Under the pieces are notes generated by a model, which saw nothing but the letters and a program-made list of their open reading frames with translations, was not told the DNA's origin and searched no databases. A DNA stretch of 64,000 bases from Acidobacteriota bacterium (GTDB taxonomy: Bacteria > Acidobacteriota > UBA6911 > RPQK01 > JAJDTT01), in assembly GCA_965263035.1 (NCBI GenBank), contig OZ253580.1, positions 5,632,001 through 5,696,000 of the forward strand, read 5' to 3'. Below are positions 11,516-40,212 of this stretch, in pieces; within the stretch, counting starts at the first letter, position 1, and each line of letters opens with the position of its first letter. The position numbers were made by a program, and so were the translations under genes.

Positions 11516-11549
11516 TATCTCACGATCGTCCGAGTTCTTGCGAAAGATA
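11516..11549. promoter_or_regulatory. 34-bp imperfect palindrome upstream of recombinase 1 (putative recombinase binding/crossover site)
   Basis: TATCTCACGATCG-TCCGAGTT-CTTGCGAAAGATA; homolog at 15289-15322 at identical spacing to the ATG. Confidence 0.55.
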
Positions 11550-12840: not shown

Positions 12841-14925
12841 TCAGGACGGACTCCGCCCCCATTCGAGGCCTTGGTGCCGATACCCCGCAAGGTACTTGGC
12901 CACTAGGTCCAGGACGTCATCGAAATCCCTCGGTTGAGTGGATTTCAGCTTTTCGATCCTGCCTCGCAAAATATCCTCATCGCCATACACGTCAACCAAC
13001 TCATCCCACTCCATACGAAAAGAACGGTGAACGATCCTTCCGGCGGCCTTCCGTGTCAACGTACGCGCTGACTCAAGCAGAGCCCGGGTCACGCGGGGCG
13101 AATCCGGGACTTCGAGAGGCGGTTCATCGGGACCAGACTCTTGTTTTATAGAGACGAACGTCCGGAGGAGACATTTTTCCTTGGCCAGAGATTCGGCTGG
13201 CGCAGATCGAACTTCCTCTCGCCAGATTCTTTCGAATTGCTGTGCCGCGCGCTCCGAGACGAGCTCGTGTCCTATGTTTTTTTGGTGTCCGACCAACATG
13301 ATCAGTTCCCACTTGGCCGACAACTGTTCGATCTGGGACAGGATGCATCGAACAGCATCCTCTATTCGGTCAGGGCTTTCGAGCTTTCGCACCAGCCGAT
13401 AGACTACTCTGCGGACGGCGTGGCGAGGTTCGAGGTCGAAAAACCCTCGCTGGAGATCAGGCATCTCGGGCAGGAGATTGAGGAGTACGATGCTTCCTGG
13501 TACGACGTGCTCCGGGCTGAACTGATCCTCGTACACTTCAAGGCCGGCAATGACATCCTGGCGCCTGTCAGCGGGCAAGATTCGCAGGTAATTGTCGAAG
13601 GCTTCGCGGTCCGCCATATGGCCCCATGCTTGTTCCGCTGCGGTAGATGCCTGGGAACCTTTATTGGGGACTCGTTCCAAGTACAGACGCATAAAATCTT
13701 CATCCGCCACGCGTCTCTCCTGAAGCCACGCGTCTTTAAAATCAGCGCCGTGGTTGAGGCCGCCAACATGCTGCTGGGCTGCGGGGAACAAGTGGAAGAT
13801 GAGTTGTCGGGCGACCCCTTTGTGGTCCGGTGCCGCCGTCTCGATCAGTTCGTTGATCTGATTTTCTCGGGACGATGGATCTTCGAGAGCACTCCTGGTC
13901 GAGGTCGTGGTGAGGCTGGGTATCGATTTGTGCAAGGCAGAAAACACACCCGGGAGAGACATGCGAATGGCTTCGAGGGCGAGAACATCCACCAGGTTGA
14001 CTCGGCCGTTGAGGGCTTGCACAGTACCGCGAATTGCAATGGCATAGCGACGAACATGCCTGATGTTTCTTATAGGGGGCCGGACGACGTCGTGAAACAC
14101 GTCAGGCCAGCGTTCCTCGTCGAATGGACCGGCATTTTCTATCCCCGAAAGCGCGCCGTCGATCGCGTGGGTAATCTGGCTGATCATCACCTCTTCCGGA
14201 ATCTCGGGGAGATCGATATCCCACTGTAGAATTTTCTCAAGATAGTCTCGTCCGCGGATCCCCGTCGATTCAGTCAGTGCCTTTTCCACCCGCTCCCGGT
14301 CGAATGCCGTGATGTAGATGACGTTTGGAAAATTCGCAGTCAGCCGGACGAGCTTGAATACCGCTCGGATTTCCGGGGTCGTCAGGCGGTCAATGTCATC
14401 GACGACGACGACGAGTGGCGTCCCGAGAGCAGTAAGGGCCTTCTTGACCTTGTCCCTGCGCTCGGCGATTCCCTCCTTCCTGAGATCGGGTAGATTTACA
14501 AGAAGTTTCATCGCCAGTCTCACCCGGTCAATCCATGGCCCAGCAACAGGTAGCCACCCCCACCTCATCCCGGAGAAGCTCTCTCCATAGCGGGTCAAAC
14601 TCTTACCCAACTCATAAAAACGACGACGGTCACGGCCTCTAAGCTGCGCCGAGAGTTCAACGAAGAAGGACTCGACGAGTTGTTCGGTGCCGCTAAACAT
14701 CCACGGGTTGAAGTCGAGGATCTCGATTCCCGCTTTTTTCAGGTGCGGACGAACCAGATTGACGAAGGACGTTTTTCCTGAACCCCAGGGCCCCAAGGCA
14801 CCGGTCACGAGACCCTCCGAGGCGTCGAGCGAGAGAAGCTGTTCGGAAAACGATTCCGCTAGCTTTGCCCTGCCGAGGACATCCTCCTCGGGATTCCGAA
14901 TAGGGGTATCCATCCTAATTGTCAT
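12841..14925 (-). CDS. KAP family P-loop NTPase
   Basis: EDVLGRAKLA, GPWGSGKTS, FNPWMF, VVVDDIDRL, YLEKI. Confidence 0.92.
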   Translation of the reverse strand: MTIRMDTPIRNPEEDVLGRAKLAESFSEQLLSLDASEGLVTGALGPWGSGKTSFVNLVRPHLKKAGIEILDFNPWMFSGTEQLVESFFVELSAQLRGRDRRRFYELGKSLTRYGESFSGMRWGWLPVAGPWIDRVRLAMKLLVNLPDLRKEGIAERRDKVKKALTALGTPLVVVVDDIDRLTTPEIRAVFKLVRLTANFPNVIYITAFDRERVEKALTESTGIRGRDYLEKILQWDIDLPEIPEEVMISQITHAIDGALSGIENAGPFDEERWPDVFHDVVRPPIRNIRHVRRYAIAIRGTVQALNGRVNLVDVLALEAIRMSLPGVFSALHKSIPSLTTTSTRSALEDPSSRENQINELIETAAPDHKGVARQLIFHLFPAAQQHVGGLNHGADFKDAWLQERRVADEDFMRLYLERVPNKGSQASTAAEQAWGHMADREAFDNYLRILPADRRQDVIAGLEVYEDQFSPEHVVPGSIVLLNLLPEMPDLQRGFFDLEPRHAVRRVVYRLVRKLESPDRIEDAVRCILSQIEQLSAKWELIMLVGHQKNIGHELVSERAAQQFERIWREEVRSAPAESLAKEKCLLRTFVSIKQESGPDEPPLEVPDSPRVTRALLESARTLTRKAAGRIVHRSFRMEWDELVDVYGDEDILRGRIEKLKSTQPRDFDDVLDLVAKYLAGYRHQGLEWGRSPS

Positions 14926-15288
14926 GGTCCTTTAACCACCACCTCGCGGGCCGGGGGGATGTCGTCGGCCGGCGGACCCGGTCATCGACGAGGCAATGTC
15001 AAACTCGTTGACTCCTTCCGGATCCGCCGCCCCATGCGGCGATCGCCGGCGACCTCCCTCCGGATGTTCGGATTTTATCACGCCCTCCTCCGCTTCTCGG
15101 AGAAACGCCGCCTTCTTCCGAACGATCCCCATCTCTTTGCGAGCGCCCCCTCTTCTCGCAAAAAATCCCTCCTCTCCTTGGAAATCGTCACCCGGATAAG
15201 ATGCTTTACGGACAATAATTCGGTGCCGGTGCTTGAGCGGTCACGCTCGGCAGCTCTCACCCTTGAGACCACAACTTCCGCGCAAATT

Positions 15289-15322
15289 CATCTATCGATC
15301 GTGTTCGTTCTTGCGAAAGAGA
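15289..15322. promoter_or_regulatory. 34-bp site upstream of recombinase 2, homologous to 11516-11549
   Basis: CATCTATCGATCG-TGTTCGTT-CTTGCGAAAGAGA. Confidence 0.55.
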
Positions 15323-15340
15323 AGAGTAGGAGGTATCAAC

Positions 15341-16339
15341 ATGAGCGGAAGACTAAACCTGGATGATTTGGAACGAACCGTGCTGGCTGGGGACGAGGAC
15401 CGGGACTGGAGGCGGAAGCTGCGAGCCCGGCCAGCGGGGACGCAGAGAGCCTATGGATCACGCCTGCTCCGGTTCGACCGCTGGATGGCCAAACGCTTCG
15501 CCGACGTAGACCCGGAGCGACCCAAAGACCAGCACGTCGCTCTTCACCTGATCCGGGAGTTCAAACGAGGACGAACCGGCGCGGTCCTGCGACTGAGCAC
15601 CACCGCCTTGCGTTGGAGGGCCAACGCGCTGGACCAGCCTTCGCCAATCGGACGCAAGACGCGGGAAACCCTGGATGTGCTGCTCCGGGAATTGGCCCGA
15701 GTCGGACGGACCAAACGTAGCGCTCCCAGCTTGTCCGAATCGGAAATGGACCGGCTGTTCCGGCAAGCCGAATCCGCCGTCGTCCCGTGGGGACTCCGAG
15801 ACGGTGCGCTAATAGCCGCCTGCTTTTACGGGCTGCTCAGGGCCTCCGAAGCCCTGGCCCTCGATGTCCAGGACGTCCGGTTCCAGCTCAACGGGGAAGC
15901 CACGCTCAGAATCCGCCGGAGCAAAACCGACCAGCATGGGGAGGGCCGGAACGTCACCCTGATTCCCGCCGCTGCGGATCGGCTCCGGCGCTGGACCGAC
16001 TTCGTCGAAATCCAGACCGGCCCCGTCTTTCGCTCTATCCACCGGCTGCCCTTCGGGGATTATCAGATTCGCAGCAAGCGCCTGTCCTTCAACACCTTCC
16101 ACGGACTGCTCGCATATCGCGCCAAACAAGCCGGGCTCGGGAGGGTGAGTACGCACACTTTGAGAAGGAGCGGCGCCAGGGCGCTCATGGAGCGGGGTGC
16201 TACCGTAGCCGAGTTCCAGTTGGCCGGAGGCTGGACAAGCGGCTTGATGGCGGTCTACTACGCCTGAAACCCGGAGGCTCAGGGTGCCGTCGTGCGAAAG
16301 TATTTCTCGGGAGCCCCAAAGCTCAAAGCCGTCAAGTAG
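15341..16339 (+). pseudogene. Cre-like tyrosine recombinase 2 (paralog of recombinase 1) with premature TGA at 16265-16267
   Basis: LLRASE, RSKTD, HTLRRS, GGW, YY; the frame continues after the stop as NPEAQGAVVRKYFSGAPKLKAVK, matching the recombinase 1 tail HDEAQGDVMQKFYPVRPRLRRVK. Confidence 0.8.
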
Positions 16340-23985: not shown

Positions 23986-24966
23986 TCAGACGGAAATCCT
24001 CTCCACCAAGTTCCCGCTAACGCGCCGCCGCCGGTCGTAGATCTGGGTGGTGCGGGGGTGGGCGTGACCGGCCAGGTACTGGACGTCTTCGAGCGGCACG
24101 TTCTGGCTGAGCAGATCCGTGACCACCAGGACGCGGAACGAGTGGGGCGAGAGGATCTTCGGCAGCCCGGCCGCCTTGAGCCGGCGCTTGAGCACCAGCT
24201 GCACGGCCAGAGGCGACATCGCCCGATCGGTGAGCGGACTGGAGCGGCGCTGCCCGGCCCGATACAGTGGTGAGGCCTGGGGCGCATCCGTGAGCCCGGC
24301 CCCTTCGAGGTAGGCCGCGATCCATTCGTCGAGATCATGGCGCACCGGGATCTCCCGCGACTTGCCCCCTTTCTCCGCAAACTGCAGCGACCGGTGGTTG
24401 CCGTTGTCGCGCAGGTCCTGGATCCGGAGCCGGCTGATGGCCCCGACCCGGGCGCCGGTGTAGATGAGCGTCCCGAGGACCGCCCGATCCCGAAGCCCGT
24501 ACACGTCGCGGGTTTTGATGGCGGCGAGGAGACGGCGCGCCTGGTCGACACTCACCTCGGGCGTGCGGCCCTCCCCGAAGGGATGGCGCACCCCCCGGAC
24601 CGACTGGAACGGATTCAAGACCGCCGCGTGCCGGGCCACCAGGACGTCGAAGAAGTGGCGCAGCGCCGCGAGGGCCTGGTTCTGGGTGGGGGCGGCCCCG
24701 GGGAGCTCGTCCAGGAACCGGCCGGCCAGGCCGGGGGTCACCTGGTGCAGCTCCAGCCCTTGGTCCTCGCACCACGCGAGGAACCGACTCACCTGGTGGG
24801 CGTAGGCGGTCCGGGTGTGGGGATTCGAGATTCGCGCAGAGAAGAACTCGTCCGCGGCGAAGCAGGCCGCCTTGCCGGCTCTCACGAGAATGGCCGGGAA
24901 GTCCCCTTGGAGGTCATTTGTTGCCGGTGAATCTCCGGTTCTGAGGGCGAGGTCGGTGTCGCTCAT
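23986..24966 (-). CDS. Tyrosine recombinase 3 (XerC/D-like resolvase type)
   Basis: NPHTRTAY, GLRDRAVL, GARVGA, EKGGK, HSFR, LAGH, TTQIYD. Confidence 0.92.
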   Translation of the reverse strand: MSDTDLALRTGDSPATNDLQGDFPAILVRAGKAACFAADEFFSARISNPHTRTAYAHQVSRFLAWCEDQGLELHQVTPGLAGRFLDELPGAAPTQNQALAALRHFFDVLVARHAAVLNPFQSVRGVRHPFGEGRTPEVSVDQARRLLAAIKTRDVYGLRDRAVLGTLIYTGARVGAISRLRIQDLRDNGNHRSLQFAEKGGKSREIPVRHDLDEWIAAYLEGAGLTDAPQASPLYRAGQRRSSPLTDRAMSPLAVQLVLKRRLKAAGLPKILSPHSFRVLVVTDLLSQNVPLEDVQYLAGHAHPRTTQIYDRRRRVSGNLVERISV

Positions 24967-24970
24967 AGTA

Positions 24971-24998
24971 GCTACGTATAATATACTTTATCGTAATC
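24971..24998. promoter_or_regulatory. dif-like 11-6-11 site immediately upstream of recombinase 3
   Basis: GCTACGTATAA-TATACT-TTATCGTAATC versus E. coli dif GGTGCGCATAA-TGTATA-TTATGTTAAAT. Confidence 0.55.
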
Positions 24999-25193
24999 TG
25001 ATCTACGCCCCGGACTCCTGGTTTTCCCCGTCGGCCGGGGGGCGATCGAGGCGTTGCGCGGCGAACGCTCGGTGCAGGAGATCGCGTTGTCGGCATTAGA
25101 GCCGGCGTTCGCGGCCCTTCGCGGCACGGCCTCCCGAAGTGGGGCGCGAACGGACCGTCATCGGCATCAGGTCGCGCGGTCGCACCCTCTCCG

Positions 25194-27482
25194 CTACGAA
25201 GCAGGAGTCGCCAGAGCTTCCCAGAACGACCGGATCTTCGGGTCGGTGTCGGGACGCCCGACGAGACCCGCCATGATTTGCTTCGGCAGGAACCGTGGGC
25301 GCAGGAACTTTTTCCGCTGTCCCCTCGTGGCGCGTTCTTCCAGTCTCATGATGCCGTGTTCAACCAGCTGGCGCTGGAGCCCATCCCATCGGGGGTCCGA
25401 GAAGAGACTCGATAACGTGTCGTCCTGTAGGCACACGAGGGCGGTTCGGCGGTACACTCGCATCAGGCGCTCCATCAAGTTCATCTCTGCCTCCGGCACC
25501 GCGGGACCCTTCGGTCCGAAATCGTCCGTGATCGGAGCCCCACACGACTGTAGCGTGTCCGTGATGAACGACGGGTCGTAGTTCGTATCCGTCGTATCGT
25601 CATTGTCGACCACACGAATGCCTGTCACATCATCCATGCCGAGTCCGGTCAACTCCAGTCGCGTCGACTCTAGGCTGACCCTAGGTTCGTACAGCCGTAC
25701 CCCGTTCGCCTCGCACGCCACGAACCGAGTCGACGTGAGGTCAGTGCGCCGCATGACTACGTCGATCAACGAACATTGACTCAAGGTGACGTTCTTGAGA
25801 TCGCTGCCCGGGAATACGACGGACTGAATCGTGCAGCCTTGGATGCCATCTGAATCCCGGCAGCCCTGTTCCTCCCGCAGCAACGCCATAGCGAGGAGCC
25901 CGGCATTCTCCCGCACCTGCGCCGTCCGGCGGCTCTCCTGCTCGGCCGCCTTCGAGAGACGGTCCAGCCGTTCCTGCAATCGGTTGCCGTCGGCCGGCGC
26001 ATCCGACGCAGCCGTCTCCTGCGCTACCCGGTCGGCAACTTCCTCGGGTAAAGCAGAACGACTCAGGATGACGCGTAGATTCGCGTCCGCGGCGAACTGG
26101 GCCGTAATTGTTCTGGCGAGAAAGAAGAAGAAGAAGAGCTCGTGTTCGAAGGCGATTCCGCCGCGCTCCGACGGTGCGTCGCCCCGGCCGAGAAAGGCCA
26201 TCGCCGGTAGCCGCTCTACAATCACCTGCTTTGCGGTGTCCGGCAGCCCTGCGTCATGGACGAAGTATTCCGCAACGAAACGAATCGAGCCGACATCGAG
26301 TCCGCGGGTTTCCTGGTTCCACATCTCCTCCGCGAGTTCCTGCATCAAGTTGCCGAACTGGTCTGTGGTCATGAGAGGTCGCGAGTTTCGATCCAACAGC
26401 TTGTCGTTCAGTTCTCTCGACGAGTACTCTCGCACGAGCGTGCGCAGCAGATCGTCGCCACTGGAGAACGAGGGGTCATGCTGCAACATCTGGACGACCC
26501 GCGTGAAGAACAGCGGCTTCAAGGCCAGAGAGGGATGGTCCTTGAAGGTGTGCGTCACGCGTTTGCAAAACGTCTCTGCCTCCGACGAGGACCAGCCCTT
26601 CTTCTCGATCCGTTTCAGGTAGTCCTGTCGATCTTCGTCAGACCACTCCTGGATTTGAACCGGCACGTGGGACCACGCCTGATCGCCGGTGGTCGAAGCA
26701 CGCCCAGCCCTTTCGAGAAACTCCTCCTCGTAGTACGTGGACCGGGCCGACACGAGAATCTGACCGTCTCCATGGAGCTGTTCGAGGAATCCCGCGAGCG
26801 AGCTGAAGGCGTCGTCGTAGCCACTGACGCCGAGTAGCTCGTCGAATCCGTCGATGACCGGCACGAGGACTCCGAGCTGTGCCAGGACCGCGACGGAATG
26901 ATAGGTGAGACCGACCTTCAGGTCCTGTAGCTCAGTCGCCAGCGCCTCGCTCAACCGTGCGAGCGATCGCCCCTGAGCGTTCACGTAGAGCAGCAGCCTA
27001 GAAGTGCGTCCGCTCAGATAGGCTTCAGCCTGCCGCCGCACGAGTTCCCGCAGGACAAAGGTCTTGCCGGCGCCTGGCCCACCGGTGACCATCACCACTC
27101 GCGTTGTGTCGGCTTCCTTACCGAGCAGGTCGGTGAGGACTTCGATGGCTGCCCCGGAACGGTGCGGGGATTCTGCCCGCGTTGGAATGAACAGCATGGG
27201 TTTCTGCGCCGATTGAATCATCTGCGCGACGTGACGCAGATCGGCCATGCCGGGTCCGGATGCGAAGGTGCGGTACAGAACGCGGGATGCACCGCTCACC
27301 GTGACCCACACGCCCTGGTCTCGCGAGACGGAGAACGTAGCCTCTTGCGGTTCGCCGCGCATGGTCCAGCTGGCGCGGAACCTGCGGTCGGACCCATCGA
27401 CATCGACCCTTGTGCCCGGGTCTCCGAACGATGCCAGATCGTGCCTGATGCGTTCGTTCCAGTACGCAAAATAGTCATTCAT
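25194..27482 (-). CDS. NACHT/STAND family P-loop NTPase with pentapeptide-like C-terminal region
   Basis: Walker A GGPGAGKT, Walker B VIDGFDE, LVSAR, KPLF, FEHELFFFFFLA; ATG 27482 overlaps upstream stop (ATGA). Confidence 0.88.
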   Translation of the reverse strand: MNDYFAYWNERIRHDLASFGDPGTRVDVDGSDRRFRASWTMRGEPQEATFSVSRDQGVWVTVSGASRVLYRTFASGPGMADLRHVAQMIQSAQKPMLFIPTRAESPHRSGAAIEVLTDLLGKEADTTRVVMVTGGPGAGKTFVLRELVRRQAEAYLSGRTSRLLLYVNAQGRSLARLSEALATELQDLKVGLTYHSVAVLAQLGVLVPVIDGFDELLGVSGYDDAFSSLAGFLEQLHGDGQILVSARSTYYEEEFLERAGRASTTGDQAWSHVPVQIQEWSDEDRQDYLKRIEKKGWSSSEAETFCKRVTHTFKDHPSLALKPLFFTRVVQMLQHDPSFSSGDDLLRTLVREYSSRELNDKLLDRNSRPLMTTDQFGNLMQELAEEMWNQETRGLDVGSIRFVAEYFVHDAGLPDTAKQVIVERLPAMAFLGRGDAPSERGGIAFEHELFFFFFLARTITAQFAADANLRVILSRSALPEEVADRVAQETAASDAPADGNRLQERLDRLSKAAEQESRRTAQVRENAGLLAMALLREEQGCRDSDGIQGCTIQSVVFPGSDLKNVTLSQCSLIDVVMRRTDLTSTRFVACEANGVRLYEPRVSLESTRLELTGLGMDDVTGIRVVDNDDTTDTNYDPSFITDTLQSCGAPITDDFGPKGPAVPEAEMNLMERLMRVYRRTALVCLQDDTLSSLFSDPRWDGLQRQLVEHGIMRLEERATRGQRKKFLRPRFLPKQIMAGLVGRPDTDPKIRSFWEALATPAS

Positions 27483-28057
27483 GAGGACGTCTGCTCCAGG
27501 CACTGGATACGTACTCCACAATCGCTCAGGGCCCGATCGTTGAGCCCTTCGCCGGCTGCGCGCCGCCGCATCCAGGCGGCACCCGCCGGGTCGGCTGCAT
27601 GGGCCGAGAGAGCGGCGGGTAGCAGGTCATCGTCGTCGCTTACGATTCCGACTCTCGACTGGCCGAGCGTAGCCGCGAAGACGGCGTCGTGGCCGAGCAT
27701 GGCGTCGACCATCTTCTGCCGTCTAGGTTTGGCTTGGAGCCTTACCGTACCTCGCAGCTCGATGTCTGAAAATTGGAGCATCGTTATCGCGAGTGTCGGC
27801 CGAAGGAGCAGTCCTTGCCGTCGGCCGCGGAGCGCTGGAAGCAACGGCAGCAACAATAGTGCGGACGGGCTGTGAACGCCCTGTTCATCGATCCAGCCGC
27901 CGTACAGACGCACATCCAGTTCACGCAGGCCCGGGAACGCAGCATGCGACGCGCGAGCGATCAGATCGAGGAGTTCCGCCGTACGGATCTCGACCTCGTG
28001 CTCGAACCTGATGCGCGGGCAGAGGTTGTCGTAGTCGACGAGTGCAAGGCCCTGCAT
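27479..28057 (-). CDS. NYN (LabA/DUF88, PIN-like) domain ribonuclease
   Basis: LVDYDN, QKMVD, IVSDDDDLLPA acidic motifs. Confidence 0.8.
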   Translation of the reverse strand: MQGLALVDYDNLCPRIRFEHEVEIRTAELLDLIARASHAAFPGLRELDVRLYGGWIDEQGVHSPSALLLLPLLPALRGRRQGLLLRPTLAITMLQFSDIELRGTVRLQAKPRRQKMVDAMLGHDAVFAATLGQSRVGIVSDDDDLLPAALSAHAADPAGAAWMRRRAAGEGLNDRALSDCGVRIQCLEQTSS

Positions 28058-28205
28058 TCTCTATCGTATTCCAAGCAAGGGTTAGTCGACGAATTTCCGT
28101 AAGTTATTCATAAAAAGTGGTTTGCTTTAAGTGCTCAGGTCTCGATTCCCACTTTCGAGCGGGAATCTGCGGGACCACCGAAGCCGTTCATCTCAAATTT
28201 GAACA

Positions 28206-28445
28206 TCAGCCCTTCACCCGCCGCGGGTCGTTGCCCGGAGCCACCGTGTCCTTGTCGCGGATCTTGCCGTCGACGCCCTTTGTCGTCAGCTCTCCCCCGC
28301 CCTGCTTCTTCAGCATCTCGCGGGCGGTGGCTTGGGCCTCTTCCTGCGTGCGATGGACGCTTCCCGCGCGCGAGGCATTGTTTCGCTTGTTCTCCCAAGT
28401 CCCATCGGGGCGACGGGACACTGTACGATCTTGCGGCTTGCTCAT
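28206..28445 (-). CDS. DUF2188 domain protein
   Basis: W..KR..ASRA..VHRTQEEA...AR...K.QGGGEL..KG.DGKIRDKD...PGNDP. Confidence 0.88.
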   Translation of the reverse strand: MSKPQDRTVSRRPDGTWENKRNNASRAGSVHRTQEEAQATAREMLKKQGGGELTTKGVDGKIRDKDTVAPGNDPRRVKG

Positions 28446-28870
28446 GCTGCCCCTTCCTGCTGCTCTAAGAGGGTATGGAGGCAATCCCATATATACTATC
28501 GTAGGTGACCGACAGGACTAGACCCCAAATAAGCGTGATCCAAGGGGGGCCTGTTAAAGAGTACCGGAAAAGCTCATCCTAAGTTTCCCCCGCACAGGCA
28601 GGGATCTTTTGGACAGTGTCCGTTAACTGAAATTTTCGGAAGCCTATCGAGGCACGGTCTCGTTTCGAGGAATGTCTCCGAGGTTACGAACAACGAAGCC
28701 CGTAGAAGGGCCTGAGATCGATGATCTCCCTTGAGCCAAGGGGTAGGGGGCACAGGCCTTTACGCGCTATCGCAGTCCTGCATCGGTTCCAGCAAGGGAT
28801 CGGGGTCCTGACAATCGCACCCCGGTACATCTTGGCCCTTTTCGCCTCTAAAGAATCCCGGGACCGGCGT

Positions 28871-29875
28871 TCAGGCTCCATACCGGAGGCGAGCCACGGC
28901 ACCCCGACCGGCCAGTTGTGCACGGGCATAGTGGCCTGGCATCTGGGGAGACGACCACCGGCCGTCGATCTGCATCTCGACGATCGTGGCCCCATTTGCG
29001 ACGAGACTCTGAGCCGATCCCACCCGGAGGCTGTGGCCAGAAACCCGGCCCTCGATATCGGCGGCGGCGGCGCGGCGTTTCAACATTAGCCGGAGCCCGG
29101 AGACCGAGAGTGGCTGATTCCCGCAGACGTCCCCTCGGCGTACCCGGCGAAACAGGGGCCCGGTGGAGAATCCGGCCCTATCGAGCCAAACTCGGATTCT
29201 TTTCACGGTGCGGGGCCCGAGATATTGCACGGCTCCCTTGCCCTCCGGGTCGGACTTCGAGAATCGGATGGTGAGACGCCCGGAGCCGTCCGGCTCAAAA
29301 ATGACGTCCTCGACCACCAGGGCGCATAGTTCCGAGACCCGGAGCATGGCATCGCTCATAACGGAGATGATCGCGGCGTCTCGCAATCCGGCCAGAGAGT
29401 GATTCCCATTGGCGGCGAGGGCGGCCATAACGTCCGCATCCCTCCATTGAACGCCTTTCACTTGCCCGCGTCCCCGTCCCTTCCCCTTGCGGCGGAGCCC
29501 GGCGAGGACGGCTTGACTTACGGGGCCTACCGGGGACGGCTGGCCGGTGGTCTTGGATTGGAACCGGACGGCGGCCACCAACTGCCCGGCAACAGCGGGC
29601 GATTTCCCCACATCGTGCAAGCTGGTGAGGTATTCGGCAAGCGTGTCATCCGTGAGGGGCTGCCCGTCCAGGTAGTCGTAGAGACGTTGCAGCTGCCCCT
29701 GGTAGGCGGCTCGGGTGTTGGCCGAGATACTGGCAGCCGCCAACTCGCGGGCCCCGGCGCTGATCCGGGCCAGTGGTCCGACTCCGGAAGACATTGAGGG
29801 GGACACTTCGAGGGCGTTCTTATTGGGCGTCGTCGTCTTTTCCTCGGTGACATTGCCAGTAGAATAACTCACCAT
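28871..29875 (-). CDS. Cre-like tyrosine recombinase 4
   Basis: SANTRAAY, GLRDAAI, MLRVSE, SKSD, GHSLRVG, GRW, HY; start may be 29875 or 29794. Confidence 0.92.
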   Translation of the reverse strand: MVSYSTGNVTEEKTTTPNKNALEVSPSMSSGVGPLARISAGARELAAASISANTRAAYQGQLQRLYDYLDGQPLTDDTLAEYLTSLHDVGKSPAVAGQLVAAVRFQSKTTGQPSPVGPVSQAVLAGLRRKGKGRGRGQVKGVQWRDADVMAALAANGNHSLAGLRDAAIISVMSDAMLRVSELCALVVEDVIFEPDGSGRLTIRFSKSDPEGKGAVQYLGPRTVKRIRVWLDRAGFSTGPLFRRVRRGDVCGNQPLSVSGLRLMLKRRAAAADIEGRVSGHSLRVGSAQSLVANGATIVEMQIDGRWSSPQMPGHYARAQLAGRGAVARLRYGA

Positions 29876-29897
29876 AAGTGTAATTATAGAGAGTTAT
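29864..29897. promoter_or_regulatory. loxP-like 13-8-13 recombination site
   Basis: ATAACTCACCATA-AGTGTAAT-TATAGAGAGTTAT; arms 11/13 inverted match; abuts Cre-like gene start. Confidence 0.75.
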
Positions 29898-30225
29898 TAT
29901 GGGGTCTGTCAAGCGCTTCAAAACATGCTCATCAGGGTTGAGGAACCGGGATGAAGGGAGGATTGCGCAACTATATCCGATGGAAATGAACCAGGAACGG
30001 GGTGCTCCACCCTCCATTTCTGTGCGGCCAATTCAAAAAAAGATGAACTAGCCGCAATAGTGGGAAGCGGCCCCACTCCATGGAACCCTTTTGCCACCTG
30101 ACAACGACGACTCCCAGAGCAAGGTTCGACAAATCGTTGTCCCCGTGCCAAGACCAGGAACCATCCCGCCGGTATACCCCTGCCATCCTGGGTTTCCGGG
30201 GGATTTGATATATCCTGAGTGTTCA

Positions 30226-32208
30226 ATGACCAACAACGATCTGAACTGGATTGCCAACTACATCTGGGGTATCGCCGACGACGTCCTGCGCGACCTCTAC
30301 GTTCGCGGCAAGTACCGCGACGTCATTCTTCCCATGACCGTTCTCCGCCGGCTGGATGTGGTGTTGGAGGACACCAAGCAAGCGGTACTGGACATGAAAG
30401 CCACTCTCGACGCGGTGGGTGTAGTCGAGCAAGATTCGTCCCTGCGGCAGGCGGCGGAGCAGGATTTTTACAACACCTCGAAGTTCACCTTGCGCGACTT
30501 GAGGTCCCGCACCAACCGTCAGCAGCTCACGGCTGACTTTGAGGCCTACCTCGACGGCTTTTCGCCCAACGTCCAGGACATACTCGAAAACTTCGAGTTC
30601 CGAAACCAAATTCCGCGGTTGTCCAAGGCGGATGCCTTAGGCACGCTCATCGAGAAACTCACTTCGCCTGATATCAATCTGAGTCCGGACCCGGTCATGA
30701 ACGCCGATGGTTCCGTGCGGTACCCCGGCCTCGACAATCATGGGATGGGTTCGATCTTTGAAGAGCTGGTTCGCCGCTTCAACGAGGAGAACAATGAGGA
30801 GGCGGGTGAACACTGGACACCACGTGACGCCGTGACTCTGATGGCGAAGCTTCTCTTCCTACCCATCGCTGACGAAATCAGATCTGGAACTTACCTGCTC
30901 TACGATGGCGCCTGCGGGACCGGCGGCATGCTGACAGTGGCCGAGGAAACACTGTCGCAGCTCGCCGCCGAGGGCGGCAAGCAGGTTTCCACGCATCTCT
31001 ATGGCCAGGAGATCAACGCCGAAACCTACGCCATCTGCAAGGCCGACCTGCTGCTGAAAGGCGAAGGCTCGGCGGCCGACAATATCGTGGGCGGACCGGA
31101 GCACTCGACGCTCGCCAACGACGCATTCCCGTCCAATGAGTTCGACTTCATGCTTTCCAATCCGCCCTACGGCAAGAGCTGGAAGAGTGACTTGGCACGC
31201 ATGGGCGGCAAGAAGGATATGCGCGACCCGCGTTTCGTGATCGAGCATGCGGGCGATCCCGAATATTCGCTGGTCACGCGGTCCAGCGACGGTCAGATGC
31301 TGTTTCTCGCCAACAAGCTCTCCAAGATGAAGCAGCACACGCCGCTCGGCAGCCGCATCGCCGAGGTCCACAACGGCAGCTCCCTTTTCACCGGAGATGC
31401 CGGACAGGGTGAGAGCAACATCCGCCGCTGGATCATCGAGAACGATTGGTTGGAGGCGATGGTCGCTCTGCCTCTCAACATGTTCTACAACACCGGCATC
31501 GCCACCTATGTCTGGGTGCTCACGAACCGAAAACCCGATCACCGGAAGGGCAAGGTGCAGCTAATCGACGCTACGAAGAGATACCAGCCTTTGCGGAAAA
31601 ACCTGGGAAAGAAGAACTGCGAACTCGGTGAAGAGGACATTGCTTGGATCTGCGAGACGTTCCTCGGGTTCGAGGAGAATGACCAGAGCAAGATCTTCGA
31701 CAATGCCGCCTTCGGCTACTGGAAAGTGACGGTGGAAAGGCCGTTGCGGATCGAAGGTATTGACCCCAGCCGTGCATACAAGGCTGCGGAGATCAGAAGA
31801 CTGAAAGCAAGTGGCGAGCGGAGTGAGACGGCACCGGCCGTGATCAAAAAGATTCACAAGCGGGGGACCGAACCCAACCCCCTTCACGGCCTATTCAGAA
31901 CTACCATCAATGGGCGATCTGCCGTGGTGGAGTACGAACCGGACACCGATCTGCGCGACACGGAGCAGATCCCTCTGCTGGAGGAGGGAGGAATTGACGG
32001 GTTCATGAGTCGCGAGGTCCTACCCTATGCCGACGACGCATGGTATCCCCCGAACAAGGTGAAGATAGGCTACGAGATCAGCTTCAATCGGTATTTCTAC
32101 ATGCCTGAGCCGATGCGGACGCCGCAGGAGATCCGCGCTGACATCCTGGCGCTGGAGCAAGAGACGGAGGGGTTGCTCGCCGAGATACTGGGCAAGGGAA
32201 GGTCATGA
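30226..32208 (+). CDS. hsdM: Type I R-M methyltransferase subunit
   Basis: IWGIADDVLRD, GEHWTPRD, YDGACGTGGML, SNPPYG. Confidence 0.95.
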   Translation: MTNNDLNWIANYIWGIADDVLRDLYVRGKYRDVILPMTVLRRLDVVLEDTKQAVLDMKATLDAVGVVEQDSSLRQAAEQDFYNTSKFTLRDLRSRTNRQQLTADFEAYLDGFSPNVQDILENFEFRNQIPRLSKADALGTLIEKLTSPDINLSPDPVMNADGSVRYPGLDNHGMGSIFEELVRRFNEENNEEAGEHWTPRDAVTLMAKLLFLPIADEIRSGTYLLYDGACGTGGMLTVAEETLSQLAAEGGKQVSTHLYGQEINAETYAICKADLLLKGEGSAADNIVGGPEHSTLANDAFPSNEFDFMLSNPPYGKSWKSDLARMGGKKDMRDPRFVIEHAGDPEYSLVTRSSDGQMLFLANKLSKMKQHTPLGSRIAEVHNGSSLFTGDAGQGESNIRRWIIENDWLEAMVALPLNMFYNTGIATYVWVLTNRKPDHRKGKVQLIDATKRYQPLRKNLGKKNCELGEEDIAWICETFLGFEENDQSKIFDNAAFGYWKVTVERPLRIEGIDPSRAYKAAEIRRLKASGERSETAPAVIKKIHKRGTEPNPLHGLFRTTINGRSAVVEYEPDTDLRDTEQIPLLEEGGIDGFMSREVLPYADDAWYPPNKVKIGYEISFNRYFYMPEPMRTPQEIRADILALEQETEGLLAEILGKGRS

Positions 32209-33626
32209 TCGCCAATCTCACCCCCTATCCGGACATGAAGGATTCTGGCGTGAAATGGTTGGGGCTGATACCTGAGCACTGGGAGATTCTGCGTGGCAAA
32301 GTGCTCTTCCGCTGTATAGATGTGCGTTCGGCAACTGGAGAGGAAGAGTTGCTCACAGTATCGTCAGACCGTGGGATAGTGCCGAGGGAGTCTGCGGCGG
32401 TCACGATGTTTAAAGCCGAATCCTACGTTGGCCATAAGCTTTGCTGGCCTGGGGATCTGGTCATCAATAGCCTATGGGCATGGAGCCGTGGGCTTGGAAT
32501 ATCTCAGTACCACGGCATCGTTAGCACTGCTTACGGCGTATACCGCTTAAGGCGCCCGATGGACGTATCCGCCGCCTACATTGACGCGCTCGTGCGTTCG
32601 ATACCATTCAATTGGGAACTGCGAGTACGTTCTAAGGGTATCTGGATATCCCGCCTCCAGTTGTCGGACGATGCCTTTCTTGGAGCCCCATTCCCCGTTC
32701 CTCCGGCAAGTGAGCAACCTGAAATCGCCCGCTTCCTCGACCTCGCCGACCGGCGCATCCGGCGCTACATCCGGGCCAAGGAAAGGCTGATCGAGCTGCT
32801 GGAGGAGCAGAAGCAGGCCATCATCCACCAGGCGGTGACGGGCCAGATCGATGTCCGAACCGGCCTGCCCTATCCGGCATACAAGGATGCCGCCGTGGAG
32901 TGGCTGGGGATGGTGCCGGAGAATTGGAAACTCATGCCACTAAAATGGCTATCAGAACGCACTCAAAACGGAGCGACGCCGCCCTCATCAAATGATGCGT
33001 TCTATCAAGATGGGACGGTCCCTTGGTATGGCCCGGCTAGCTGTGGAGCGGGAGAGGATGTTGGGCCGCCGATCAGGTACCTCAACTCGTTGGCGTTCTC
33101 TCAGGGACGAGCTAGACTCGTCCGAGGGCCAGCACTTCTTCTCATCGTGATCGGAGCCACTGCCGGACGGATTGCGCTGATGCCAGAGGACGGATCCACT
33201 AACCAGCAGATCACATCGTACGAAATATCCACTGATTTCGTGCGTCCCCGATTCATACTACGTCAGTTACAACGAGCCGAGTCGTGGCTTCAGTCGACCG
33301 CGTCTAGCGCGACCATTCCCATAATTAACTCAAGTGTGGTGAACCGCTTGCCCTGCGCGATTCCATCACTCGATGAACAGGATTCGATAATCTCTGCCCT
33401 CAAGTCTGACTGTTCGCGAATCGACAGCGCGGTTGCGTCCAACTCGCGACAAATTGAACTCCTCCGCGAATACCGCACACGTCTGATCGCCGATGTCGTC
33501 ACCGGCAAGCTCGATGTCCGCGAGGCAGCGGCCGCAATGCCGGAAGAACCCGACGTGGTGACAGACGCGATGGAGACGATCGGCCTTGTAAACGCTACTG
33601 AGACAGCAGAGGAGGTGGCTCTATGA
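32205..33626 (+). CDS. hsdS: Type I R-M specificity subunit
   Basis: YPDMKDSGVKWLG, two TRDs, LLEEQKQAIIHQAVTG, EYRTRLIADVVTGKLDV. Confidence 0.95.
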   Translation: MIANLTPYPDMKDSGVKWLGLIPEHWEILRGKVLFRCIDVRSATGEEELLTVSSDRGIVPRESAAVTMFKAESYVGHKLCWPGDLVINSLWAWSRGLGISQYHGIVSTAYGVYRLRRPMDVSAAYIDALVRSIPFNWELRVRSKGIWISRLQLSDDAFLGAPFPVPPASEQPEIARFLDLADRRIRRYIRAKERLIELLEEQKQAIIHQAVTGQIDVRTGLPYPAYKDAAVEWLGMVPENWKLMPLKWLSERTQNGATPPSSNDAFYQDGTVPWYGPASCGAGEDVGPPIRYLNSLAFSQGRARLVRGPALLLIVIGATAGRIALMPEDGSTNQQITSYEISTDFVRPRFILRQLQRAESWLQSTASSATIPIINSSVVNRLPCAIPSLDEQDSIISALKSDCSRIDSAVASNSRQIELLREYRTRLIADVVTGKLDVREAAAAMPEEPDVVTDAMETIGLVNATETAEEVAL

Positions 33627-33847
33627 CCAGATGGAATACTTGTTCGGCCGTCGAACGCGACTCGGAGAAGGTCAGCGGTGCCTGGATATTTTGTGGTACG
33701 CGAGTGCATATTGGGGCGCTGTTCGAAAATCTCAGGGACGGTGCCACGATTGAACAGTTTCTGGAGTGGTTCCCCGGTGTTGAACGCTGGCAAGCTGAAA
33801 GTGTTCTGGACCATGAGACCCGGACCTTGAAGGACTCGGTGGCTTGA
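33623..33847 (+). CDS. DUF433 antitoxin-like protein
   Basis: VERDSEKVSGAWIFCGTRV...LFENLRDGATIEQFLEWFPGV. Confidence 0.88.
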   Translation: MTRWNTCSAVERDSEKVSGAWIFCGTRVHIGALFENLRDGATIEQFLEWFPGVERWQAESVLDHETRTLKDSVA

Positions 33848-34158
33848 AAATACTGTTCGATTAGAGTGTACCGGCGCCGCTACGTCGGCAACTGGCCGAA
33901 CACGTGGTGGATACCGCTTTCGAGCGAGGGTGGTCGAACCTTCGCAATGGCGTGTTGCTCGACCGAGCAAAGAGGGATGGCTACCAGCTCTTGGTGACGA
34001 CGGATCAGAATCTTCGTCATCAACAAAACCTCGCGGACAGGTGATTGGCGATCATGGTGTTGGCGGCATCATGGCCGCGTATTCGACAGCGTGTTGACGA
34101 CATTCGAGCCGTTGTTGAGCAAATGGGACCGGGTTAGTACATGTAAGTCCCGATCTGA
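33844..34158 (+). pseudogene. DUF5615 PIN-like toxin pseudogene (four in-frame stops)
   Basis: MKILFD*SVPAPLRRQL...GWSNLRNGVLL...LVTTDQNLRHQQNL..R*...G*YM*VPI. Confidence 0.85.
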
Positions 34159-34169
34159 TAGCAGGATCT

Positions 34170-37100
34170 ATGGCGACCACTGACACTACCGAACGCGGCC
34201 TCGAACGCCTGATCTGCAAGGCCCTGACCGGCGATCCCTGCGACCCTCCTGCCGATTGCACCATCGGCGACCCGCCCGCCGGGTACGGTGGCGTCGGCTG
34301 GTCCTGCGGCAACCACCGCGACTACAACCGTGAGTACTGCGTCGACCTGGTCCAACTCCGGGCCTTCCTGAACACCACCCAACCCGAAGCCGCTGCGGCA
34401 TTGCGACTGACCGAAGACGGTCCCAACCGCCGCAGGTTCCTTGCTCGCCTCCAGGGCGAGATCGCCAAACGCGGCACGATCGACGTCCTCCGCAACGGCA
34501 TCCGGCACGGACCCCACGAACTCGACCTCTTCTACGGAACCCCCTCGGCCGAGAACGAGAAGGCCAAGCGGCGCTTCAAGCAGAATCGATTCACCGTCGC
34601 CCGTCAGCTCCACTACAGCCAGCACGAAACCCAGCGCGCCCTCGACATCGGACTCTTCATCAACGGCCTTCCCGTCTTCACCTTCGAACTCAAGAACCGC
34701 CTCACCAAGCAGACGGTGAGCGATGCCACGGAGCAGTACAAGAAGGACCGCAACCCGCGCGAGAAGCTCTTCGAGTTCGGCCGATGCGTGGCCCATTTCG
34801 CGGTGGACGAGAACGAAGTCCATTTCTGCACGCACCTCAAGGGAAAGGCCTCCTGGTTCCTGCCCTTCAACCGAGGCTGGAACGACGGTGCGGGAAACCC
34901 GCCCAACCCGCACGGCCTGCGATCCGACTACCTGTGGCGCGAAGTACTGACCCGGCGGAGCCTGACCAACATCCTGGAGAACTACGCCCAGATCGTGGAG
35001 TCGAAGGACGCCAAGACGGGGAAGAAGAGGCGAGTCCAGATCTGGCCTCGCTACCATCAACTCGACGCGGTGCGCCGGCTCCTGGCCGATGCGGGCGCGC
35101 ACGGGCCGGGCAAGCGTTACCTGATCCAGCACTCAGCGGGCAGCGGCAAGAGCTATTCGATCGCTTGGCTGGCCCATCAACTGATCCGGCTGGAAAAGGA
35201 CGATGCTCCGGTCTTCGACTCAATCATCGTTGTCACCGATCGGCGCATTCTCGACACGCAGATCTGCGACACGATCAAGAAATACGCTCAGGTGAGCGCG
35301 ACGGTGGGGCACGCCGAGCGTTCAGCCAACCTGCGACGGTTCATCGAGTCCGGAAAGAAGATCATCATCTCGACGATCCAGAAATTCCCTCACATCCTCG
35401 ACGAGATCGGTAACGAACATCGGGGGTACCGCTTCGCCATCATCATCGACGAGGCCCATTCGAGTCAGGGGGGCCGCATAAGCGCTGACATGGCCCGGGT
35501 GCTCGCGGAGGTCGGTAAAGAGGGAGAGGAGGCGACGTACGAGGATCAGATCAACTACATGATGCATTCGCGCAAGCTCCTTCCCAACGCCAGCTACTTT
35601 GCCTTCACCGCAACCCCGAAGAACAAGACCTTGGAGAGCTTTGGTGACCCGGACCGGCAGCCCGACGGTACGGTCCAGCATCACGCCTTTCACACCTACA
35701 GCATGAAACAGGCGATCCAGGAGGGTTTCATCCTGGACGTGCTGCGCCACTACACGCCGGTCAAGAGCTACTACAAGCTCGCCAAGACGGTGGAGGACGA
35801 TCCCAAGTTCGAAGCGAAAAGGGCCCGCAAGAAGTTGCGGCGCTACGTTGAGGGACACGACCACGCGATCCGCCTCAAGTCGGAGATCATGGTGGACCAC
35901 TTCCATACGCAGGTGCTATCCCATGGAAAGATCGGTGGTAGGGCCCGGGCGATGGTGGTCACCAACGGGATCAAACGCGCGATCCAGTACTTCCATGCCA
36001 TCCGTGACTACCTGAAGGAACGAAAGAGCCGCTACCGGGCAATCGTGGCCTTCTCGGGCGAGCACGAATACGGCGGAAAAAAAGTGAGCGAGGCCTCGCT
36101 GAACAGTTTTCCTTCGAACAAGATTGCCGAGAGGTTCCAGGAGGATCCGTACCGCTTTCTGGTCTGCGCGGACAAGTTCCAAACCGGGTACGACGAACCT
36201 CTGCTGCATACGATGTACGTGGACAAGACGCTCTCGGGCGTCAGGGCGGTCCAGACCCTCTCGCGGCTCAACCGGGCTCATCCCAAGAAGCACGATGTAT
36301 TCGTGCTGGATTTCCTGAACGAATCGGACACCATCCGCGACGCCTTCGCGGACTACTATCGAGCGACGATCCTGTCCGAAGAAACCGATCCCAACAAGTT
36401 GCACGACCTCCAGGCAGACCTGGACGGCGCACAGGTCTATTCCTTTGAGCAGATCAAAGACTTCGTGTCGCGCTATTTGGCTGGCGAGGACCGCGAGGAG
36501 CTTGATCCCATCCTCGATGCTTGCGTGGCGGTGTACGAGCAGGACCTGGACGAAGATGGGCAAGTTCAGTTCAAGCGCCGGGCCAAAGTGTTCCTGAGAA
36601 CCTACGCCTTCCTCTCTTCGATCCTTCCGTACAACAACGCGAAGTGGGAAGAACGCTCGATTTTCCTGAACTTCCTGGTCTCAAAGTTACCGTCCCCGCG
36701 AGAGGAGGATTTGTCCAAGGGCGTTCTCGACGCCATCGATATGGATAGCTACCGGGTCGAGAAACGGGCGATGCAGAAAATTCGCCTGTCGGATGAGGAC
36801 GCCAAGATCGACCCCATTCCGGACAACGGTTCCGGTGGCCGTGCGGAGCCCGAGATAGACCTCTTATCGAACATCATCCAGACCTTCAACGATCTATTCG
36901 GGAACATTCAATGGGAAGACGAAGACCGTGTGCTGGAGCTCATCACTGAAACGATTCCTTCACGAGTCGCACAGAACACCGCCTACAGGAACGCTCAGGA
37001 AAACTCGGACCGGGAGAATGCACGCATCGAACACGACAAGGTACTGGAACAAGTCATGGTGGGGGTGATACAGGACGACACCCAGCTGTTTAAAAGGTTC

Positions 37101-37178
37101 ATGGACGATCCGAATTTCAACCGGCTGGTCAGCGATGCGTCGTTCCAGGTTACATACAAGCAGGCGCCGGCGCCGTGA
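34170..37178 (+). CDS. hsdR: Type I R-M restriction subunit
   Basis: LDIGLFINGLPVFTFELKN, HSAGSGKS, IIDEAH, FTATP, KFQTGYDEP. Confidence 0.95.
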   Translation: MATTDTTERGLERLICKALTGDPCDPPADCTIGDPPAGYGGVGWSCGNHRDYNREYCVDLVQLRAFLNTTQPEAAAALRLTEDGPNRRRFLARLQGEIAKRGTIDVLRNGIRHGPHELDLFYGTPSAENEKAKRRFKQNRFTVARQLHYSQHETQRALDIGLFINGLPVFTFELKNRLTKQTVSDATEQYKKDRNPREKLFEFGRCVAHFAVDENEVHFCTHLKGKASWFLPFNRGWNDGAGNPPNPHGLRSDYLWREVLTRRSLTNILENYAQIVESKDAKTGKKRRVQIWPRYHQLDAVRRLLADAGAHGPGKRYLIQHSAGSGKSYSIAWLAHQLIRLEKDDAPVFDSIIVVTDRRILDTQICDTIKKYAQVSATVGHAERSANLRRFIESGKKIIISTIQKFPHILDEIGNEHRGYRFAIIIDEAHSSQGGRISADMARVLAEVGKEGEEATYEDQINYMMHSRKLLPNASYFAFTATPKNKTLESFGDPDRQPDGTVQHHAFHTYSMKQAIQEGFILDVLRHYTPVKSYYKLAKTVEDDPKFEAKRARKKLRRYVEGHDHAIRLKSEIMVDHFHTQVLSHGKIGGRARAMVVTNGIKRAIQYFHAIRDYLKERKSRYRAIVAFSGEHEYGGKKVSEASLNSFPSNKIAERFQEDPYRFLVCADKFQTGYDEPLLHTMYVDKTLSGVRAVQTLSRLNRAHPKKHDVFVLDFLNESDTIRDAFADYYRATILSEETDPNKLHDLQADLDGAQVYSFEQIKDFVSRYLAGEDREELDPILDACVAVYEQDLDEDGQVQFKRRAKVFLRTYAFLSSILPYNNAKWEERSIFLNFLVSKLPSPREEDLSKGVLDAIDMDSYRVEKRAMQKIRLSDEDAKIDPIPDNGSGGRAEPEIDLLSNIIQTFNDLFGNIQWEDEDRVLELITETIPSRVAQNTAYRNAQENSDRENARIEHDKVLEQVMVGVIQDDTQLFKRFMDDPNFNRLVSDASFQVTYKQAPAP

Positions 37179-40125: not shown

Positions 40126-40212
40126 TGGTCCCCGGCGCGGGATTCGAATCCACACGGCCTTTCGGCCACCGGATTTTAATTCCAGCGCGTCTGCCAATTC
40201 CGCCAGCCGGGG
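40126..40212 (-). tRNA. tRNA-Leu(TAA), non-canonical
   Basis: Cloverleaf: CCCCGGC/GCCGGGG-ACCA acceptor, GGAATTGGCAGACGC D arm, CTGGA-ATTAAAA-TCCGG anticodon arm, long variable arm, TTCGAAT loop. Confidence 0.85.

Follow-up and report, generated by a model that had tools for sequence, protein, structure and literature searches.

The stretch of DNA analysed here, referred to as the window, comprises 64,000 nucleotides of contig OZ253580.1 (positions 5,632,001 to 5,696,000) from an Acidobacteriota bacterium. At 28871..29875 on the minus strand it carries an intact gene for a Cre-type tyrosine recombinase of 334 aa, recognised from the list of open reading frames (ORFs) and by Pfam, PDB and Foldseek comparisons, and a 34-bp palindrome built like a lox site lies across the start of this gene at 29864-29897. 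We consider it likely that the ORF specifies an active-looking recombinase and that the palindrome is its own recombination target. Gene and site lie in a variable stretch between ilvD (9815-11497) and a tRNA-Leu gene (40126-40212), which also contains two paralogous recombinases, a KAP NTPase, an XerC-like integrase, a NACHT/pentapeptide protein and a type I restriction-modification (R-M) system.

The palindrome, ATAACTCACCATA-AGTGTAAT-TATAGAGAGTTAT, was found by direct look-up at exactly the position given in a preliminary description of this DNA. On the gene strand it consists of a gene-distal arm (29885..29897, ATAACTCTCTATA), a spacer (29877..29884, ATTACACT), which is the presumed crossover region, and a gene-proximal arm (29864..29876, TATGGTGAGTTAT), which holds the start codon and codons 1-4. 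Two 13-bp inverted arms thus flank an asymmetric 8-bp spacer in a 34-bp target close to the gene. When recomputed in this 13-8-13 register, the arms are complementary at 11/13 positions and match the loxP arm, as quoted in the preliminary description, at 9/13 and 10/13, in agreement with the values reported there. A repeat finder placed the same site in another register, with 15-nt arms that are 87% complementary and 6 nt between them.

The protein has the full set of Cre catalytic residues that had been read from its sequence: R179, K207, H281, R284, W307 and Y316 align with R173, K201, H289, R292, W315 and Y324 of Cre, and none of the six varies in an alignment of 22 family members. Pfam recognises Phage_integrase alone, at residues 146-320. 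The best PDB sequence matches are 17 Cre proteins or Cre variants (E 2.6e-10 to 1.1e-9, residues 77-330), and the next family is represented by a Xer-like archaeal protein at E 8e-4. When an AlphaFold model was compared by Foldseek, Cre chains occupied ranks 1-31 (E about 1e-11, best 1.7e-11), followed by XerA (1e-6), XerD (8e-6), an integron integrase (9e-5) and lambda Int (~1e-4). By sequence and by fold the protein is therefore nearer to Cre than to the Xer, lambda-Int or integron integrases. The model, of moderate confidence, has the two-domain build of Cre, with five helices at 40-131 followed by the catalytic fold, and neither Pfam nor the model shows a separate arm-binding domain. Scores on the NCBIfam Xer models are low: 49.2 bits on XerD (cut-off 329.6), 38.8 on XerC (cut-off 335.15), and also far below the cut-off on XerA. 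The integron-integrase model is not among the NCBIfam matches of the protein, and neither a second site nor a cassette-like repeat of an integron attI/cassette array is present in the window or the genome; on these two grounds, identity as an integron integrase was rejected. An Rfam scan of 27000-31000 returned no RNA family.

A sigma-70-type promoter precedes the gene on the same strand (29883..29912), with TTGACA as the -35 box (29912-29907), TATAAT as the -10 box (29888-29883) and 18 nt between the two. It agrees with the consensus at 12/12 positions and is the sole promoter-like match in 28600-30300. The -10 box spans the arm/spacer border, with 4 nt from the end of the distal arm and 2 nt from the beginning of the site spacer, and the first possible ATG of the gene (29875-29873) lies inside the proximal arm, as the preliminary description had noted. 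The recombinase mRNA is probably leaderless, because this ATG is only 7 nt beyond the -10 box. The MESY start, which encodes the proximal arm, is found in 9 of the 10 close relatives, while residues 5-30 vary; an internal Met28 is not conserved, the family consensus there being Thr. With both the -10 box and the start of transcription covered by the site, the recombinase should, when bound, repress the gene from which it is made, and the idea of autoregulation put forward earlier gains a structural basis from this position within a perfect promoter. In the mechanism that we propose, each arm would be occupied by one of two recombinase monomers and the strands would be exchanged inside the 8-bp spacer, as happens in Cre/loxP, while recombinase bound over the -10 box and transcription start would repress its own gene. 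Gene and site would together form a compact solitary module of ~1.05-1.3 kb in the ilvD/tRNA-Leu variable island. In short, the locus probably encodes a self-repressing Cre-type enzyme with its own target, in the form of a solitary module.

The site is present once in the window, as stated earlier (one match with at most 3 mismatches, and 0 in 100 shuffles). The preliminary description had also proposed a search of the genome for a partner site, and none was found, the site occurring once in the 6,198,070-bp single-contig genome; among 13-mers starting with ATAAC in the whole genome, none other than those of the site was paired within 2 mismatches of either arm. The regions within 4 kb on either side of 19 homolog loci (loci are designated L, genomes G) likewise gave no partner site, and only isolated half-site-like matches were seen there, upstream of L017 and of L004/L005/L012. 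As the genome holds no partner, the enzyme would at present be confined to regulating itself and to recombining the site with another copy of it, carried by a sister chromosome or an incoming circle. By descent, the module would most likely be a mobile or plasmid-borne system for resolution or integration.

Inverted repeats of this quality are common in the genome. In the 13-8-13 format with at least 11/13 complementary positions, 8 are present in the window and 263 in the genome, and the mean over 200 block shuffles of the window was 1.1. Palindromes of such quality not being rare, the site draws its weight from where it lies, from arms that resemble lox and from being conserved in homologs, and not from the palindrome alone. 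One could suppose that one of these 263 repeats came to lie beside the gene by chance, but at that density overlap with a given start codon, to within 50 nt on either side, is expected in only ~0.4% of cases, and a coincidence would account neither for the lox-like arms nor for the promoter embedding and the layout conserved in homologs. We regard it as extremely unlikely. A second 13-8-13 repeat, TGCGGCCAATTCA-AAAAAAGA-TGAACTAGCCGCA (30023-30056, 11/13), is located 126 bp from the lox-like site, inside a locus-specific 252-bp segment; it is not lox-like, and no T-run follows its stem.

The recombinase belongs to a large family. Among 8000 scored candidates, 1089 proteins matched at E<=1e-3; ten full-length relatives (334 aa) are 83-94% identical and many others 55-64%. 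In species-representative genomes, 454 of the 605 pattern matches encode relatives. Eighty loci from these genomes were retained and assigned to phyla by record title: Latescibacterota (15), Poribacteria (15), unclassified 'bacterium' (12), Acidobacteriota-type (11), Thermodesulfobacteriota (6), Gammaproteobacteria-type (6), Dadabacteria (4), Binatia (3), Dehalococcoidia (2), Nitrospinota (2), and one each from Alphaproteobacteria, Spirochaetia, Trueperaceae and Nitrosopumilus. Twelve genomes or records contain 2-5 loci apiece. The family is nearly absent from phage and viral collections, with only 2 distant matches on viral contigs. Relatives were found in 500 plasmid records, all at <60% identity (the best 25 of the 500 at 27-40%), and the plasmid records matching the protein include those of Pantoea (81 records) and Vibrio (25 records). 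No close relative was recovered in metagenome scans, and full-text literature searches returned no paper on this recombinase family. One record, OY760735.1 (23,101 bp, labelled 'chromosome: 2'; L031/L033), carries a family member at both ends, and its ends are 99.9% identical over 3892 bp, which suggests a circular plasmid assembled with a terminal overlap. When the five family copies in OZ241875.1 were compared, element ends were not definable.

Inspection of the regions upstream of homologs, another check proposed in the preliminary description, gave a divided answer. Among 87 non-redundant loci, 16 carry a 13-8-13 repeat with at least 11/13 complementary positions within -130..+60 of the start, where such repeats are 11.4 times as dense as in the rest of these loci; a similar palindrome at the start is thus a recurrent property, but a strong one is missing from the other 71. 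Odd spacings gave 0-1 matches and even spacings of 4-12 reflect the same centres, and the near absence of odd spacings implies that the symmetry centre is fixed. Written on the gene strand as distal arm, spacer and proximal arm, the sites read ATTACTTGCGATA, ATTGCACT and TATCACAAGTAAT at L018; ATTAGTTTGTATA, ATTCACGT and TATCAAAACTAAT at L017; GTTACTTGGTATA, ATATCCCT and TATAGAAAGTAAC at L022; TTTATTTCCGATA, AGTTGGAT and TATCGGAAATAAA at L004; ATAATTCTTTAGA, ATACTATT and TTTATAGAATTAT at L054; and TTAGCGTTATATA, ATTAAGGT and TATACAACGCTAT at L077. The spacers of L018 and L037 (ATTACAGT) resemble that of the window, and the distal arm of L061 equals the quoted loxP arm over its 11 innermost bases. 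Arm sequences are unlike between loci and match within each locus, an apparent covariation that is partly circular because the sites were chosen for being palindromic. The independent support from the homologs is the positional enrichment together with the shared promoter layout: a TTGAC(A/G/T) -35 box stands before the site, with the -10 box on the arm/spacer border, at L017, L018, L022, L037, L054, L058 and L035, and homologs with 13-8-13 sites in the same promoter position come from several phyla. The genome of the window itself encodes nine paralogs at 32-39% identity, none with a comparable palindrome at its start. Scans of the 600 nt upstream of these paralogs for inverted repeats of at least 10/13 found one at -226 and one at -45, neither of them lox-like.

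A natural breakpoint was identified by comparison with G002, a genome of the same genus that has an intact, 84%-identical 334-aa copy of the recombinase. DNA homology between the two is limited to 28840-29877 (83.5%, 1038 bp) and a 25-nt block at 28618-28642. G002 keeps the proximal arm (TATGGAGAGTTAT), and its spacer and distal arm are replaced. The upstream flank in G002 is syntenic with a locus elsewhere in the genome of the window (G000:146315-149578, 87% over 3265 bp). In the coordinates of L102, homology of the flank ends at 12879 by BLAST or 12881 by alignment, homology of the element begins at 12884, and the spacer occupies 12877-12884. This is suggestive of a crossover within the 8-bp spacer, mapped from both sides, where a Cre-type exchange would place it.

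Several smaller observations concern the same comparison. The 25-nt block (28618..28642), ~230 nt past the stop codon, is the only flank sequence that the window has in common with the G002 copy (92%). It contains AAATTTCAGTTAACGGAC, and the TTAACGGA motif recurs upstream of L029 and of L084-L092, which are homologs from the same genus. In the decayed relatives P0100 (..YGELF) and P0011 (..LWRVI), an other-frame reading encodes the proximal and not the distal arm; this back-translation was made by hand and is weak evidence. Lastly, a ~165-bp repeat at ~1724-1897 of L134 (~151,283-151,456 in the genome of the window) has ~25 copies in G002 at 88-95% identity, some of which match both strands, and looks like a miniature inverted-repeat transposable element.

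The position of the palindrome also allows a narrower interpretation, in which it is a promoter operator only and not a recombination substrate, the real target being elsewhere or lost. Such a role would fit the coincidence of the site with the -10 box and transcription start, its single genomic copy, and the G002 junction, where the replacement arm agrees with the distal arm at only 5/13 positions and is not lox-like. It would leave unexplained a 13-8-13 structure with a fixed even symmetry centre, as befits a Cre-type core site, as well as the loxP-like arms and a break in homology that falls within the spacer from both sides. Moreover, a core site doubles as an operator in other tyrosine recombinase systems: in TnpI/IRS of Tn4430 and in plasmid resolution recombinases such as ResD/rfsF it is located directly upstream of the gene and overlaps the promoter, and binding regulates expression. 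We consider a purely regulatory palindrome unlikely. The window gene differs from these systems in that it has no transposase or plasmid backbone, and no accessory direct repeats were found near its site.

Somewhat less probable, in our estimation, is that the module is a decaying relic, in which an intact-looking but non-functional recombinase derives from a lost plasmid or element and the site has been kept by chance or inertia. The gene is indeed solitary and resides in a variable island with four tyrosine recombinase genes within ~18 kb, and the close relatives P0011, P0012, P0013 and P0100 are frameshifted or truncated. Decay is hard to reconcile with a full-length ORF, invariant catalytic residues and a perfect consensus promoter, or with the ten relatives at 83-94% identity that retain the full 334 aa. 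Over the N-terminal 27 codons, a hand count against G002 gave 5 synonymous and 7 non-synonymous changes, which also counts against a relic.

The relationship of the module to the Xer/dif system was considered separately. Elsewhere in the genome of the window are a canonical XerD gene (382 bits) and another Xer-like gene, probably XerC, whose score on the XerD model (325.6 bits) falls narrowly short of the cut-off. A unique canonical dif, ACGTCGCATAATGAATATTATGTAAACT, is present at C1:5,875,243-5,875,270, where GC skew turns negative, and the origin-side GC-skew minimum is at ~2.86 Mb. The lox-like site, at genome position 5,661,864, is 213 kb from dif (5,875,250). A role of the module as the chromosome dimer-resolution system of this genome was rejected on account of this distance and of the genome's own XerD and Xer-like genes. 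The lox-like site nevertheless has the inner core ATAA-N6-TTAT in common with dif, and the palindrome might be a dif-type site for the host XerC/XerD. The module would then be cargo moved by Xer, as in dif-modules or integrative mobile elements exploiting Xer (IMEX), and not a self-contained Cre/lox pair. However, agreement of the site with the arms of the dif in this genome is limited to 14/22 positions, and in 26000-32000 no other sequence reaches 14/22, so that no dif-like site flanks the module. The palindromy of its arms extends over 13 nt, with outer bases like those of lox, and the protein reaches only 39-49 bits against XerC/XerD cut-offs of 330-335. For the window, we therefore find this explanation very unlikely.

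A further argument for a connection with dif comes from the Latescibacterota, in which a homologous module is situated between leuS and mutL (L017, L022, L037 and L061). L017, L022 and L061 have the module at the chromosomal dif locus, with a clear dif-like site after the gene; at L022 the lox-like site also has two clear ones before it, and by eye only degenerate dif-like sequence was seen upstream of L017, L037 and L061. In G061 and G088 the strict dif pattern matches these slot sites and nothing else, and in G079 and G113 it likewise matches the slot site alone. In G077, which holds L037, the slot contains the module and a truncated downstream copy of dif, and the genome has no other strict dif match. 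In at least 5 other genomes of that family, the same leuS-mutL slot contains a different tyrosine recombinase of ~350 aa between two dif-like sites; these loci are L123, L124, L126, L127 and L130, and the C-terminus of their protein reads RHKDLKTTMRYYENRE... The XerD-like and second Xer-like genes are kept in all 5 of the 5 genomes tested. Judged by the dif-like sites around them, some family members reside at dif in the manner of Xer-exploiting elements. A recombinase gene directly beside a palindromic site is also typical of XerS/difSL, XerH/difH and IMEX at dif. The window module resembles such single-recombinase Xer modules in its ATAA-N6-TTAT core and through its Latescibacterota homologs. 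It differs from them in that its genome has XerD, an XerC-like gene and a unique dif, in the lack of flanking dif-like sites, and in that its protein is nearer to Cre.

Among these possibilities we favour the interpretation first proposed in the preliminary description, a Cre-type enzyme whose own lox-like target adjoins its gene, since the match to Cre, the promoter overlap, the homolog sites and the spacer breakpoint all point to it. Several observations weigh against it. Besides the abundance of comparable repeats in the genome, the 71 homolog loci that have no strong palindrome and the poor agreement of the G002 replacement arm, these include the same-genus homologs at 55-59% identity that were inspected by eye, where the arms pair at only ~7/13 (L087 being the one read for both arms). 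The single site in the genome leaves the enzyme without a present-day intramolecular substrate. The reciprocal junction of the G002 rearrangement was not found, since G002 does not conserve the sequence to the right of the matching locus in G000, and the rearrangement may not have been made by the recombinase. In the AlphaFold model (mean pLDDT 67, pTM 0.59), residues 1-43 are disordered and the C-terminal 50 are of low confidence. At codon 24, each of the 11 close sequences has either GTG or ATG, as read by eye from the alignment, so that a later start with a 5' leader is possible and translation may begin there instead of at M1. Finally, Jelicic et al. (2023) describe a screen of Cre homologs for palindromes of 13-15 bp with an 8-bp spacer within 1 kb of the gene, in which ~500 pairs were predicted; about half of the tested sites recombined and about half of the palindromes so predicted did not (PMC10250229).

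The preliminary description had placed the recombinase at the junction with the type I R-M block. This location is incidental. The R-M block exists in multiple copies, and its homology with the others begins only at ~30130; the 252 bp between the spacer and this point (29878-30129) are unique to the window locus, and the G002 ortholog has no R-M neighbour; a link between the two was rejected on these grounds. The segment from the site to the R-M homology (29898..30129), which holds the repeat at 30023-30056, belongs to this unique sequence, and query positions 1-250 of the upstream region had no match in 20 relatives or elsewhere in the genome of the window. Phase-variable shuffling of hsdS was likewise rejected, since neither a second hsdS nor an inverted repeat was seen. 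In this genus, hsdM and hsdR recur several times per genome at 85-94% DNA identity, and the intervening hsdS region does not match, as seen when window 30228-37178 was compared with 4,606,772-4,613,317 and 2,919,588-2,922,791 of the same genome; such a pattern is suggestive of a family of R-M loci that have exchanged their specificity subunits.

Other parts of the island may be described briefly. No tRNA-derived direct repeat bounding it was found. A NACHT ATPase with pentapeptide repeats (25194-27521, minus strand) and a KAP-family NTPase (12841-14925, minus strand) share the island with the R-M system, an assortment that resembles a defence island. The small ORF at 28206-28490 (minus strand) is DUF2188-like by eye and has no NCBIfam match. 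The two paralogous tyrosine recombinases, at 11652-12485 and 15233-16267 on the plus strand, are 32-33% identical to the Cre-like protein and have in common a conserved motif upstream, ATCT..CGATCG...TTCTTGCGAAAGA (11517-11547 and 15290-15320), with a third copy at genome position 5,358,442; they have no lox-like palindrome. The XerC-like integrase (23986-24966, minus strand, 326 aa) scores ~115 bits on the XerC and XerD models, below the cut-off. A dif-like palindrome, AGCTACGTATAATATACTTTATCGTAATCTGA, is present 4-35 nt upstream of its ATG, at ~24970-25001. Near-identical sites exist at 6 or more other positions in the genome, of which at least 3 adjoin paralogous integrases (2,088,349; 3,684,176; 5,547,261), and this looks like a second, multi-copy family of recombinase-plus-site modules.

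Cre/loxP of phage P1 is the closest described counterpart of the window module. In both, a two-domain enzyme of ~340 aa that lacks an arm-binding domain and has the same six catalytic residues, including the Trp at the position of W315, is paired with a 34-bp target made of two 13-bp inverted arms and an asymmetric 8-bp spacer, with the arm matches to loxP given above. The two differ in several respects. Identity is ~20% in the Foldseek alignments, the window gene is chromosomal and not phage-borne, its family being nearly absent from phage and viral collections, and the window arms carry two asymmetric positions. While loxP is located some hundreds of bp from cre, the window site overlaps the promoter and start codon of its own gene. 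Dre/rox, VCre, Vika/vox, Nigri, Panto and the YR series of Jelicic et al. (2023) are objects of the same kind, namely a Cre homolog with a nearby lox-like site, and the present family differs from them in being found mainly in uncultured Latescibacterota, Poribacteria, Acidobacteriota and others. Neither the window arms nor the phylum names of the family occur in one supplementary file of PMC10250229, a file that may omit the full candidate table, so that the pair may have been listed before.

If active, the enzyme and its site would provide an additional Cre-type recombinase/target pair as a tool. Because 3-4 arm positions and the spacer differ, the pair is probably orthogonal to loxP. The homologs would supply a set of enzymes and sites that have already co-varied in nature, with which arm recognition by Cre-type enzymes could be investigated, and the promoter-embedded layout would represent a simple natural circuit for self-limiting expression. 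The family is large and extends over many phyla of uncultured bacteria, often with several members per genome, and has no described function. A broader, and rather doubtful, proposal is that its members constitute a class of self-regulated single-gene Cre/lox modules of ~1.1-1.3 kb, distributed over at least 10 phyla and an archaeon and in some cases placed at the chromosomal dif locus between dif-like sites, where related genomes have another, Xer-like recombinase. They would be either minimal mobile elements riding on Xer/dif recombination or alternative or back-up systems of chromosome-dimer resolution of the Cre/lox type. The link to dif in the Latescibacterota raises the question whether Cre/lox-type modules may join, or parasitise, chromosome dimer resolution.

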